Shown: positions 1 through 50,475 of the stretch, one piece after another | Layout of the letters: each line of letters opens with the position of its first letter | Numbering within the stretch: position 1 is the first letter of the stretch | DNA from: Lama glama | Lineage: Eukaryota | Assembly: GCA_028534125.1 (NCBI GenBank) | Contig: CM052816.1 | Coordinates: 12,402,001-12,466,000, forward strand | DNA length: 64,000 nt | Reading direction: 5' to 3' | Made by a program: the position numbers and the translations under genes | The notes under the pieces: model-generated | Told to the model about the DNA's origin: nothing | The model's database searches: none | The model's input: the letters and a program-made list of their open reading frames with translations, nothing else

Positions 1-742
1 ATGTTTCCGTGGCAAGTCTTTTCACATAGAGTGATGATTTATGAGCTGGCAGAATAAACAATGCCCTAATAATACAAACGCAGACACCTAGCACCATTTG
101 CTTTCCCATATTTATTTGCTAGATTTTACAAGTCAAGGCGGCCCTCATAATGATTTTGATAAAGAAACGTGATTCATACCTGGATGGCTGCAGAAAACAT
201 TTAAAATACAAAATTCATTTAGTACCGATTAGCCTTAGAACATTATTTATGTAATCTGTCACAACGGCAGATATTAGAGAGAACATTTTTCTCTTCCCTT
301 TGGAAAAGTTTATCAATCGCCCTTGTTCCTGACAAGCCCTTAGGAGAAGAACATTTATCAGGGTGTATTAGAAGACTCTAAAAATAAGAGCTGAAACTAG
401 TGTTTTAAAAGGAGAATACGGGCTGATTGCAAAAACTTGAGAAAAGCCTGTTTGGCCGCCAAGTCACTGCGGGCAACGGGAGAAGTCAAGTTTGCGAAGA
501 TTCACTGGGAGTGCTCTGGAGCAGAGGGAAGAACCTTTCTGGGGGGTTCTTAAAACTTGTAAAGTGCAGCCTTGAGGCAATTGCACAATACAGTGCTTAA
601 TACCCGGCTTCCAACAAGACGCGTGAAATGCATTCATAATTCGGCGCTTGTCAAATTTGCAAATTATCACAGAATTCGGTTACCCAGGAGTCAAACAAGT
701 AATAAAAATCTTGTATGAGGAATAATAAAATGTAGTACTTAC

Positions 743-878
743 ACAATACAGTGCTATCCATCTTGAAGACGGGGCAGGAAGCGCATTCCCCAGGGAGAGC
801 AGCCGTCCAGAAGGCCTGCGCCTCGGCCTCCGCTCCTCTCGGCAAACGCCTCAACTCCACCACGGCGTTTTTTCATTT
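743..878 (-). ncRNA. Putative exon 2 of the same transcript (alternative acceptor would start it at 914)
   Basis: Acceptor TTTTTCCAG| (AG 880-879), alternative CTTTGCTTTTAG| (AG 916-915); donor TGT|GTAAGT (GT 742-741). Confidence 0.4.
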
Positions 879-921
879 CTGGAAAAACCGTGTCCGAGTG
901 TGGCCTCCAGAAGCCTAAAAG

Positions 922-1030
922 CAAAGTTTCTCAATGCTGGCAGCGTATTAAAATTACCGGAGAAGCTTCAAAAGAGAAGTACTAAGCCGCACCCCCAAAC
1001 CAGCTAAATAACACCCTCAGGCGTTGCTGG
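922..1030 (+). mobile_element. Degraded MER5-like hAT-Charlie fragment
   Basis: caaagtttctcaatgctggcagcgtattaaaattaccggagaagcttc...cacccccaaa resembles the MER5A 5' half. Confidence 0.4.
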
Positions 1031-1129
1031 TTCCCAAACAGGACCCCCCCCAAACAGCAACGAGAGACCTAGAAAAGAGCAGGCGCCTCCACCGTGGGAG
1101 GCGACAGTCTAAGTAGCAAGGGGACTTAC

Positions 1130-1230
1130 TCCCGCGGCTTGTCCCGGGCACCGCAAGACGCCGACCTCCCCACGCGCCCGTCGCGGCCGGCGCCTCACAA
1201 GTTTATACGGAGACGCGTGACTGGAAAGAG
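1130..1230 (-). ncRNA. Putative exon 1 of an unidentified minus-strand transcript (no ATG)
   Basis: Runs from the TCT initiator to the donor GGA|GTAAGT (GT at 1129-1128). Confidence 0.45.
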
Positions 1231-1345
1231 GATTCCCTCCAGGTGGTTCCAGTTCCGCAGCTCTCGCGAGGCTGCCTCCCTGCAAAACGGCTCGGCCTGT
1301 GGGGGCGGTGGGCGGAGCTTGCAGCCTGAGGACAGGGATTGGCTG
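1223..1345 (-). promoter_or_regulatory. TCT (5'TOP)-type core promoter, predicted TSS ~1230/1228, transcribing leftward
   Basis: Minus strand TCCTCTTTCC (1232-1223) fits YC+1TYTYY. Upstream are TCTCGCGAG (1262-1270), GGGCGG at 1303-1308 and 1310-1315, and CCAAT (ATTGG 1338-1342, context AGCCAATC). No TATA box seen. Confidence 0.65.
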
Positions 1346-1836
1346 AGGAGCCTCCGCTCGCTGGGGTTAAGCTCAAGGGTCAGCCAGCGGTCACAGCCTC
1401 TCTAGGAACGCCCCAACATTTTATCCCTTATGACGACTGACTTTTATAATCTTACACGCCCCCCAGTTCCACAACGTACCCTGAGTGGTCAGCGAGCCGT
1501 TTTAGTAGCGTGGAGGTGGCTCGTTTGAGAGCTATGTGACTGCATTGCAGGCAGATTCCACAGCAGTATTATAGGCAAATGTAAGAGAAAACACAGATTA
1601 AAATATAATTCCCAAAATAAGTAACATTTTCCACTATGAGCCCAATGATTTGAACTATTTACTTGCTAAGTACCCTAGGCTGGGAGTATGATCACTTAAG
1701 GTAGTTACTTGGGTTCTCGTGTGGTTTTAATAAAGATGATACATTAGCAGACGCATCAAGTATAAAAGCGCATCACGCTGTTTGGATAATGGCACAGGTG
1801 CGTCCTTGTAAGGCAGCAATAATGTCTAAGGCCGTC

Positions 1837-7516: not shown

Positions 7517-9498
7517 ATTAACAACACTCTGCGGAGGCAGTAGAATATATTAGAAAATCTTGAAGCTTACAGTCATGTAAACTTGTATACTTACCAAGTA
7601 AATTAATTTTAGGCAGATTGTAAGATGCCTCTGACCCAAGAAGATAAACATAGCAATTCTTTCCTTAAAGGCAACTCCTGAGGACTAATGAGAAAACCTA
7701 CACAAAACCCCACAGAGTTGGCACACTGTGAGATTTTACTATTGTGACCTGCTAACAGAAGTTTCATTTCCTTACATGTTTCTTCTCTGTCTTCTGACTA
7801 GTTTTCTCTTTAGACATCATGTAAAGAAATTCAGATTAGCCTCTTGGTAAATCTGGCTTCCTCATTCGTTGGTCAAACCCCATCTGGGAATGTTCTAGAG
7901 ACACTTTTGGATTCTGGTTTCGTAAATAAAAATAACCTCGCCAGAATCATCAGTGGAATCTGTCCGAAGGCAGACGATAAGCCAGCATGATGACTCTGAT
8001 CAGCGGAGAGCAGAGACGGGTTGGCTTGCATTTTCGGCAAGAGCGGACGAGTGCATTCACGAGAAACAGAAGTTATTGGTTTGGAGGAAAGAGATAGTGC
8101 AACAAAAGAGGCTATAATGGTTGACGACATGTTTCCACTGTAAAGGACCTCAGAGAGTTGGCGTCTCTTTTTTTTAATTCCTCGAAAATGAAGCAGCATG
8201 TGCTAATTGGAGTTCTCAGTAGAAATGTGAGTGTGTATATATGTTCCAATCCAAGCTTTTTGCAAATGAAGAAAAACAGTTTCTGCACAGATCACAAGAC
8301 CATCGTTCTCCACGGAGGGGGAAAAGAAAGCTAAGGTTTCCACAAAGATCTTTTGTATTCCCAAGCACATCCAAAACTCTTTGTCTTCTTCTGCTCCAAG
8401 AATTTTCTGTGTTCTCGGCAGCGGCCCAGTAAACCTGGAAACCAATTTCCCTGTGGTCAGGAGCTGGCACTAAAGTTGATCAGTATAATCCAGGCTGCAC
8501 ATCACTGGGCAGTTTGTCGACTCCCAACAGATGTTGCAAAAGGCAGTCCAGATTTGCCAGCCTTTTCCTGGCAGCTTTCCTGCTTTCTCTTCCGAGGTCT
8601 GATGTTTCCTTGCAGTACACAGTGTCTGTCTGAAGAGCAGATGTGTTAGAGAGGGATATTTTTCTAAGCTAATTCTCCACCACTGTTTGCTGATTAAATC
8701 CCAGAATGTTCTCTGTATAGGCTTCTCGCAAAGAGGAGGGAACAGAACTTATTCAAAGCCGACTATCATGCATCTGCTTTCCATGGGAAGAAATAATAAA
8801 AGCATTTTATTTCACACTGAAATTTGTTCAGTTATGATGTGCAAGAAAGGACACAAAATGTGATTTACCTATGGCTGAAAATCTGAAATTGATCTGAGCT
8901 ACCTTTAAGGTGATTTCAATTGCCTGTAAAACACACTAGATAGTCTATGTACAAAAAAAAGGGCAGATGACACGACTTTGTCCAAATTCTGTCTGTTCTT
9001 TATTTGTGTTGCCTTCTGATCTCTTTGCTAATATTCTAGCTCCAGAAATGCCAATATATAATTTCTCTGCAAAGCATACAGTAGAGAATATTTTCCATAG
9101 ATGTTTTCCCACTTAGCACTCAGAAGCATTTTCATGGACACAACACAAACCTCAGAAGAAATCAAGAAGTGTCTTGACCATTGCACTGACTAGCGTGTGT
9201 CATTTCAGTTGTAATGAGCAAAGGTTATTATCAGTTATCACGATGGAGGGGGGGTTTACTGCAAGGATAGGCACAGACTGGAGCAGAAGAACGGGCGGCT
9301 CCAAATCCAAGCCAGCTTGAAGCGCTGCCTCCTTCTGCCTCCTCGTCTGGGGCTTCCCAGCTTCTACCTCATGGTAACTCTCCTTCTCTTTGCATAACGC
9401 TTCATCTTCTCCCTCCAGTGGATTCTTCCTCTGTTCTCCACCCTGGAGCCAAATTGTAAGTGGATTTATCTTATGCATAATTATCTCTCAGTGCTTCC

Positions 9499-33289: not shown

Positions 33290-33510
33290 AGGGATTATTA
33301 AGCATCTATTTAATGTATGATACTGTGCTAAGTACTTTGGGTTTTCTAATTGAATTCTCACATGAACCTTATGAGGTGTCTATTATTTTTATTTTTTATT
33401 TTCAGATGAGGAAACTGTGGTCCAAAGAGGCTGGATCAACAGCGTAAAGCCATCTGATTAAGAAGAGGCAGCGACATGGCCTCAGCTCACTGCAGTCTCA
33501 TTCTAAGAAA
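33290..33510 (-). mobile_element. MIR SINE
   Basis: ttttcagatgaggaaactgtggtccaaagagg. Confidence 0.7.
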
Positions 33511-45199: not shown

Positions 45200-45796
<597 letters not shown>

Positions 45797-49340: not shown

Positions 49341-50475
49341 TCAGTCACCATATACATTTATTCTACTAGGAGTCACACACTGACCTACGGGAACAAAACC
49401 AGTCAGGAGCTTGTTAGATATGATGGTGATGCTTCCACTAAAATGCTGTACAACGGATGCTGGGGTCTGGCTGGAATATCATGTTAGGAAGAGCACTGAT
49501 GCAATAACTGGATTCATTAGGGAAGTATCTACCGAGCACTTTGTAAGGTCTGACTTTGTCTTGGGAATGGAGAGTAACCGCTAGCACATACAGTGTCTGG
49601 TAGATAGTGTGGGACCAGGGCATCACTTTGGATAGAAGGCTCCTTTACAGTTTGCAGTGCTTAGGATTTCACAAACGGATGAGTCTTCCAGGGTAAAATT
49701 TTACTTGAAGACACATCGAATAAATTTAAACCCAGAGCCTGGAGGAATCTGTCTTCTGGATTAAACGGGGAAGGGCAGGAAACTCAACAGACTCAAGTCC
49801 TTAAACACTAAATCTTCCAACATTTTACAACTTGGAAAAAATTGAGGACCAATCAAGAAAATTATATGATTGGACTTGGCCCCTTTCCACTGTAGCCCTA
49901 AGTTCTTACTGACATAGAAGGAATAAAAGAGGAAAGACTACAGAATCTTTCTCCCCTATGAAAAATTCAAACCGAGCTGAGTGAAACATGACTTAGCAAA
50001 CTCACAAAGTGCTTATGCATTTTTAAAAGAGGCAGCTCTGCAATCTACCCACACTTCAAATCCTCCACCTGCTAATGGTTGCAAACACAATGCACATCAT
50101 TTACAGCAACAGCTGGGAAAACTGCTTTCCCCTGTCTTCTCTGTCAATGATGTAGGAGCCTGCCAGTCTGGGAGCTAGGTGGCCAGATTTAATTTATCGA
50201 GGCTGCTGAAACACTTTCTTGGTATCCCAGCTGAAAAGTCAATAATGCCCAAATTGATATTTTTATAATTCTGCCAGCCTTGGAAAAGATATTGCATAGA
50301 GGAGATTGGAAACAGGCAGACTGTGCAAAATGCATCTTCCAGCTTGACCATCACATCATTTCTTGCTTGCGACTTAGCTTTTCCACTCATGGACATTTGG
50401 CCTTGGATGGGCCCAGCTGGGGACCCTCATTAAGAGGTGGCAAGTTTGGGCAACTGTAAACAGTGAAACTACCTA

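Follow-up and report, generated by a model that had tools for sequence, protein, structure and literature searches.

Does the only CpG island in a gene-poor stretch beyond KCTD16 hold a working promoter, and if so, of what class and for what kind of gene? We address this question in 64,000 nt of Lama glama DNA (the window; positions are counted from its first letter). An earlier note on this DNA, made from the sequence alone, proposed that a TCT/5'TOP-type promoter lies on the minus strand near one end of the window. Here, we ask which parts of that proposal the sequence and its matches in public sequencing runs bear out, and we weigh the explanations that compete with it.

The locus and its landmark

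The landmark is KCTD16, and the earlier note had named it correctly. Specifically, the last coding exon lies on the minus strand at 45652-45203, where 150 of 150 residues align at 99% identity to a named KCTD16 protein.

45200..45652, minus strand: last coding exon of KCTD16, the landmark, from a protein match

C1230, the main candidate start considered below, is 43,970 nt away from the KCTD16 stop codon. The island had been placed 32 kb past the 3' end of the gene. That distance depends on an AATAAA pair at 33400/33393 (minus), 32,163 nt from C1230, which is only a putative 3' end. Presumably it sits in a MIR-like relic (33393-33400), and KCTD16 transcripts may be polyadenylated elsewhere. 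A bovine KCTD16 model (P0027) carries extra residues that match 50360-50470 (minus; 62% over 37 residues), where the window frame has a stop. The extra sequence is probably a gene-model artefact; considered as a link to this locus it was rejected, as it maps to ~50.4 kb instead.

Closer to the island, positions ~1840-2630 hold what we take to be an LTR relic, MER21-like and on the plus strand, which points away from the promoter and begins ~600 nt upstream of the tract that concerns us here. Weaker CpG retention is seen at 7601-8500 (o/e 0.50-0.67, GC ~0.42-0.44); this stretch is below island threshold and is a possible enhancer. Within the window, there is no second copy of 1-1850. Among the papers listed by searches of the literature on the surroundings of KCTD16, none was evidently on this locus. 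Camelid lncRNA supplement tables or RefSeq/Ensembl models may already list the transcript that we describe.

Promoter motifs in the only CpG island

As the earlier note had it, the window contains a single CpG-island cluster. In a 200-bp scan, its GC content is 0.578 and its CpG o/e is 0.80 versus 0.25 in the background, a ratio that points, indirectly, to an unmethylated island. The candidate promoter elements are the following, in which "the relative" is the source of sequencing run X1, described in the next section.

731..1540, no strand: CpG island, the window's only one, from GC content and CpG o/e
1337..1344, minus strand: CCAAT box AGCCAATC, no listed difference in the relative
1303..1315, plus strand: two GC boxes, no listed difference in the relative
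1262..1271, no strand: CGCG element (Banp/DYRK1A motif), 9/10 match, no listed difference in the relative
1223..1232, minus strand: TCT/TOP-type pyrimidine tract with candidate starts at C1231/C1230/C1228, perfect YC+1TYTYY at 1230 and 1228
1202..1207, minus strand: TATAAA hexamer, read from the sequence, that could support a rival start near 1177

The pyrimidine tract reads TCCTCTTTCC on the minus strand (1232-1223), and it matches YC+1TYTYY with 0 mismatches at both C1230 and C1228. This motif is the TCT consensus, present at 77 of 86 human ribosomal-protein (RP) promoters (PMC10813206), and the description of the initiator as perfect thus stands. The neighboring elements are also where they had been reported: the CGCG element has its centre 36.5 nt upstream of C1230 (~30-40 bp had been given), two GC boxes (GGGCGG) begin at 1303 and 1310, the CCAAT box AGCCAATC at minus 1344-1337 is 110 nt upstream of C1230 and the GT of a GTAAGT donor lies at 1129-1128 (minus), ~100 nt downstream. 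Only in part, by contrast, do the elements lie "all in one orientation": TCTCGCGAG is a plus-strand sequence, as are the two GGGCGG boxes. The TATAAA hexamer, at 1207-1202 on the minus strand, is downstream of the pyrimidine tract. It agrees with the TATA consensus at 6 of 8 positions.

The CGCG motif is present, but as a variant. Specifically, TCTCGCGAGG agrees with the consensus at 9 of 10 positions, and matches of this quality occur in 22 of 100 shuffles of the whole window. CCT/AGG flanks of the CGCG element are associated with reduced reporter activity, and the flanks here are of that lower-activity type (PMC6192621). Calling the motif BANP-type agrees with literature listings. The ZBED1 label that had been attached to it fares worse: ZBED1 shows no significant enrichment at human RP promoters (PMC10813206).

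How much of this arrangement would chance deliver? Some YCTYTYY match arises in 4762 of 5000 dinucleotide shuffles of 701-1600, and the window holds 390 such matches; thus, the initiator alone means little. CCTCTTTCC arises in 80 and TCTCGCGAG in 26 of the same 5000 shuffles. A TCT motif with a CGCG element 15-60 nt upstream arises in 6 of 5000, and all five features together in 0 of 5000, counts whose significance is overstated because the distance windows were picked after the sequence had been seen.

A spliced transcript on the minus strand

A search with 1-1500 listed 24 runs, among which four, from one study, are recorded as RNA and share 0.28-0.37 of its words. Four of the 24 runs (X1, X5, X9 and X21) were examined in detail. 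Run X1 comes from a relative that is 92-99% alike by segment, and it supplies three contigs. One of these, record 2, is 336 nt long at a depth of 16.8; it matches 743-914 and 1131-1293, and a single additional letter separates the two matches. If that letter stands for a base change at 1130, the contig omits 915-1129, which has GT..AG ends on the minus strand. This intron 1 is 215 nt long, and a TTAAT that resembles a branch point precedes its AG by 37 nt. Because the joint uses the predicted GTAAGT donor and has GT..AG ends, the strand of the spliced molecule is fixed as minus. The donor that had been pointed out from the letters is therefore in use, spliced at 1130/1129, in one contig of one of the four runs, from a relative. 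The depth of 16.8 is modest, and depth is, according to the tool, a poor measure of expression.

The remaining runs contribute less. Run X5, which is RNA by guess, yields a contig (record 5) that spans 836-989, crosses the exon 2/intron boundary unspliced and carries X1's letters at 878 and 892. The relative thus carries the intron as sequence, and so the joint in X1 does not reflect a deletion fixed in its genome; it could conceivably stem from a copy in DNA elsewhere that lacks the intron. The X5 contigs contain no joint and no exon 1 piece. Nothing matched in run X9, which has a small share. In the RNA-seq comparison that had been proposed for this locus, the X1 contig has the junction at 1130; 0 of 12.8 million raw reads of run X21 matched, a result that the tool itself counts as no test. 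Taken together, we are confident that a spliced minus-strand transcript from this island is real. Its first two exons are now mapped.

1130..1230, minus strand: exon 1, 101 nt if the start is C1230, from X1 record 2 (1131-1293 joined to 914), which extends beyond C1230
915..1129, minus strand: intron 1, GT..AG, joint 914 to 1131
743..914, minus strand: exon 2, 172 nt, X1 record 2 stopping at 743
737..742, minus strand: probable second donor GTAAGT, new with respect to the earlier note, from the record overlap and the likely fork
1..742, minus strand: intron 2 or extended terminal exon, from X1 record 1, with 10 differences in 742 nt

The second donor emerges from the way the X1 records meet. 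GTAAGT occupies 742-737 (minus), with 742 as its first base, and record 2 ends exactly there. Record 1 (1773 nt, depth 9.95) covers 1-772 unbroken and continues for 1001 letters beyond the start of the window. The two records overlap by 30 letters (743-772), which we read as the trace of an assembly fork between 743 and 742 with 31-letter words. If so, exon 2 would be 914-743, with some molecules spliced at donor 742 and others running on. Exon 3 would lie more than ~1 kb to the left of the window, because no joint into 1-742 is listed and record 1 is unbroken. Intron 2 appears to be longer than 1.7 kb.

The same stretch holds an exact 14-nt direct repeat, with copies at 584-597 and 742-755 that are 158 nt apart (17 nt at 94%). 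One of the copies closes exon 2, at donor 2. Exact 14-mer repeats arise in 14 of 2000 shuffles of 1-1500; the repeat could be a local duplication or an insertion footprint.

Where transcription begins

Contigs have no power to show transcript starts. They do show that the core of the promoter is covered by some RNA (or DNA), since the spliced X1 contig crosses the CGCG element and ends at 1293, 63 nt beyond C1230 on the upstream side. Upstream of it lie separate contigs.

1288..1496, no strand assigned: separate upstream contigs (X1 record 3, X5 record 6), which may be divergent RNA, upstream starts or DNA

X1 record 3, at 1288-1496, has a depth of 2.2 and is separate from the spliced contig; X5 record 6, at 1306-1457, has a depth of 7.1. 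Most CGCG elements lie no more than 50 nt from the main start, and they give rise to divergent RNA; by analogy, the upstream contigs would fit the divergent RNA of such promoters (PMC6192621).

The relative offers a second view of the initiator. Its tract has two pyrimidine-to-pyrimidine changes, at 1230 and 1227; a perfect TCT is thereby gone, the best match having one mismatch. Pyrimidines still run uninterrupted for 9 and 6 nt from C1231 and C1228. The TOP rule is a +1 C followed by about four pyrimidines (CYYYY), and because these runs remain, the relative's tract still fits it (PMC9731452). At the local rate, two changes in a 10-nt tract are nothing unusual (p 0.11-0.18), and thus no special constraint on the initiator is seen. 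The CGCG, GC and CCAAT boxes together have 0 listed differences over 35 nt, a weak signal (p 0.15-0.23).

Initiation need not follow one rule. Mixed YR and YC starts are reported in ~45% of expressed HepG2 promoters, including that of GAS5 (PMC6954239). For this island, mixed YC/YR initiation is probably to be preferred over a single mode. Whether TOP starts make up a substantial share of initiation is, in our judgment, evenly balanced.

Uneven divergence across the transcript

Exon 1 is the most diverged part of the region, at 8 of 101 positions plus a 3-nt gap (7.9%), which is not what a constrained start of the RP type would show. The stretch 1-742 differs at 10 positions (1.35%; Fisher p 5e-4 for exon 1 versus 1-742), exon 2 at 6 of 172 and 1231-1293 at 1 of 63. 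The upstream island differs at 13 of 209 (p 3e-4). As an observation in its own right, exon 1 and the upstream island have diverged from the relative four to six times as much as 1-742. That stretch is also AT-rich (GC 0.39) and has retained its CpGs (o/e 0.63).

The contrast has two readings: either 1-742 is constrained or the island is evolving fast. The fastest divergence has been reported for promoters without ties to protein-coding genes (PMC1449885). In the literature, we found no neutral divergence baseline for camelids.

Coding content and small RNAs

The only ORFs in the first two exons are of 40 and 36 codons.

754..876, minus strand: 40-codon ORF wholly within exon 2, no relative found
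743..761, minus strand: strong-context ATG at 761 (A at -3, G at +4), with six codons and one base before donor 2

With intron 2 retained, the ATG at 761 opens a frame of 36 aa that runs to 651. Differences in the relative are uninformative, with two synonymous and two non-synonymous in the 40-codon ORF and one of each in the 36-codon ORF. Protein searches are weak here, as only six residues of the frame from ATG 761 lie in the window. Within the "longer" protein length class, a 52-aa frame returned 83 candidates, none at E<=10, and a 43-aa frame returned 34, again with no hit. The one match of a 73-aa frame, to P0003, a tandem-repeat ORF at 25% identity, was rejected. An exact protein look-up gave 0 of 3, a blank that means little, as the queries included a stop-to-stop piece of KCTD16 that is no natural protein. 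A protein atlas search of the in-window frames had a best score of 0.77 and no credible relative, and Pfam, run on six ORFs, gave two sub-threshold matches, both on the KCTD16 frame. As far as these sequence comparisons reach, the in-window frames seem to have no credible protein relative, RPs and translation factors included.

Small RNAs were sought along the same stretch. The suggested Rfam check for intronic snoRNAs, aimed at sequence beyond the window, was run on the part of the gene inside it (1-1129), and none was found. Across the 64 kb, Rfam gave 0 matches at gathering score. Relaxed searches gave four matches in 1-2500 (E 5.3-8) and five in 1-760 (E 1.6-8.2), all of which we rejected as chance. 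Crude C/D and H/ACA box scans of minus 1129-1 gave 0 candidates, and ARAGORN also gave 0. Folding z scores are -2.93 for minus 301-440, -2.66 for 521-600 and -2.54 for 541-680, with four other stretches unremarkable. These hairpins are the best of 278 windows scanned, and they are therefore not counted as evidence. The hairpin-rich stretches 301-440 and 521-680 (minus) have no snoRNA boxes in the expected places. Scans of metagenome DNA gave 0 matches and then three that aligned over 20-26 nt only, also rejected as chance.

Given that the 40-codon ORF precedes the best ATG and that neither ORF has relatives, the RNA is likely to be non-coding or to encode only a small ORF.

Resemblance to known promoter classes

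CGCG-element promoters (TCTCGCGAGA; Banp/DYRK1A/Kaiso motif) resemble this locus in having a CpG island, an element at most 50 nt from the likely (here, assumed) start and contigs on both sides (PMC6192621, PMC10813206, PMC9363121). The class features present here are a core with TCT/AGA-like flanks (9/10), a position inside 731-1540 and a distance of 36.5 nt from C1230, if that is the start. The differences are that the element is a single copy, that its flanks are the weaker variant and that it is a candidate BANP site. In humans, 13% of CGCG elements are at unidirectional non-coding promoters (PMC6192621). The class that combines CGCG and TCT is enriched at RP and housekeeping genes.

With TCT/5'TOP promoters, the locus shares the perfect consensus, a short exon 1, an early first intron, GC boxes and the CGCG element. 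It differs from them in that no RP or translation-factor frame was found in the window, that the consensus is broken in a close relative and that there is a 40-codon leader ORF. Strong TCT/TOP promoters are mostly those of RP, translation-factor and snoRNA-host genes. GAS5-type snoRNA hosts and YC/YR dual-initiation promoters likewise have short, non-coding-looking exons, a pyrimidine tract and signs of starts outside it (PMC6954239, PMC13736004). Unlike in the GAS5-type hosts, no snoRNA was found here, either in intron 1 or in those 742 nt of the putative intron 2 that lie within the window.

Orphan CpG islands, finally, are similar in being intergenic with signs of transcription, and the RP-like motif set marks out something narrower. 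About half of mammalian CpG islands are orphan, and 42% of human orphan islands have promoter signs (PMC2944787). Orphan status depends on annotation.

A working model and its competitors

The reading that we favor, and hold to be somewhat more probable than its negation, is that the island is a TATA-poor, active promoter of the CGCG-element class that drives a spliced minus-strand RNA. The notion, taken from motif function, is that BANP-type binding at the CGCG element, together with what we presume to be SP1- and NF-Y-type factors at the GC and CCAAT boxes, would open the island, which would then fire both ways. The RNA would have a short exon 1 (to 1130), the 215-nt intron and an exon 2 of 172 nt, followed by more exons beyond the left edge of the window, and donor 742 would be used alongside an unspliced or extended form. 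Initiation would be of the mixed, dual type, with some molecules beginning on a C in the 1231-1228 tract and others upstream. Tract-started molecules would carry a 5'TOP and would be sensitive to LARP1/mTORC1.

Other accounts of the promoter part company with this model over where and how RNA begins. The island could be an ordinary lncRNA promoter of the orphan-island type that fires on purines (YR), either upstream of 1230 or near 1177, in which case the TCT would be incidental and there would be no TOP. We consider this unlikely but a serious contender: it would account for the spliced contig extending to 1293, and it draws strength from YCTYTYY appearing in 4762 of 5000 shuffles, from the local-rate differences at 2 of 10 initiator positions in the relative (p 0.11-0.18), from promoter activity at 42% of human orphan islands (PMC2944787) and from the fast divergence of promoters outside protein-coding genes (PMC1449885). 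What it leaves unexplained is a TCT with a CGCG element at this spacing, seen in 6 of 5000 shuffles, and a pyrimidine tract that outlives both changes. Moreover, the hexamer near 1207, which would serve a start at 1177, has only 6 of the 8 TATA consensus positions. Read-through from KCTD16 or from another upstream source, with cryptic splicing and an island that is no promoter, could be read into the strand shared with KCTD16 and into the contigs over 1288-1496. It strikes us as highly improbable: the upstream contig, at a depth of 2.2, stays separate from the spliced one (depth 16.8; 6-nt overlap), the joints listed include no acceptor for exon 1, and the CpG o/e of 0.80 suggests an unmethylated island.

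A further set of explanations concerns the gene that the promoter serves. A non-coding snoRNA host of the GAS5/SNHG type, with snoRNAs in intron 2 or further left, is compatible with the favored model and more specific than it. The TCT-type start, the short exons and short first intron and the presence of short ORFs only are what such a host would have, and in snoRNA hosts, the intron side is less diverged than the exons, as 1-742 is relative to exon 1 (1.35% versus 7.9%, p 5e-4). We nonetheless regard a snoRNA host as rather improbable, as Rfam gives 0 at gathering score (relaxed best E 5.3 and 1.6), the C/D and H/ACA scans of minus 1129-1 give 0 candidates, the hairpins (z -2.5 to -2.9) are the best of 278 windows and intron 2 apparently exceeds 1.7 kb, against a median of 522 nt for the short snoRNA-bearing introns of RP hosts (PMC13736004). 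A protein-coding gene, for example one with a TOP mRNA or a retrogene to the left that recruited the island, would be read from ATG 761 into exon 3. That ATG has a strong context, unchanged in the relative, and lies 19 nt before an apparently used donor, but an out-of-frame 40-codon ORF overlaps it and the in-window frames have no credible relative (in weak searches, on six residues); we judge a coding gene of this kind doubtful. Fainter still is the prospect that part of a known TOP gene was duplicated or moved to give this promoter and these first exons, or that they mark a rearrangement. We hold this very unlikely. An RP-like motif set in a gene-poor setting would fit that idea, but the relative keeps the same order of pieces over 1-1496; the single copy of 1-1850 in the window neither supports nor excludes a distant parent.

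Implications

What the locus means depends on where its RNA starts. With purine starts, the island would join the many orphan CpG islands that are transcribed, and it would hold little special interest. A new TCT/TOP promoter at a spliced gene would, by comparison, point to a missed snoRNA host or a small protein, or else would show the entry of a young gene into mTOR/LARP1 control. The two initiator differences between the relatives provide a natural pair, in which the TCT consensus can be set against a pyrimidine tract alone.

We end with a speculative reading, one that we think quite unlikely. Specifically, a lineage-restricted 5'TOP gene could have arisen in, or moved to, the gene-poor stretch past KCTD16 with a full RP-type promoter. 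Its exons would be drifting fast, and the AT-rich, CpG-retaining 1-742 would be near-constant owing to a small RNA or RNA element within it that is yet to be described and that falls outside the Rfam families. The divergence contrast between 1-742 and exon 1 is the main lead to this reading. If it is true, TOP host genes would be seen to carry a novel type of cargo, and the locus would be a young example of a gene's entry into the regulon under mTOR control.
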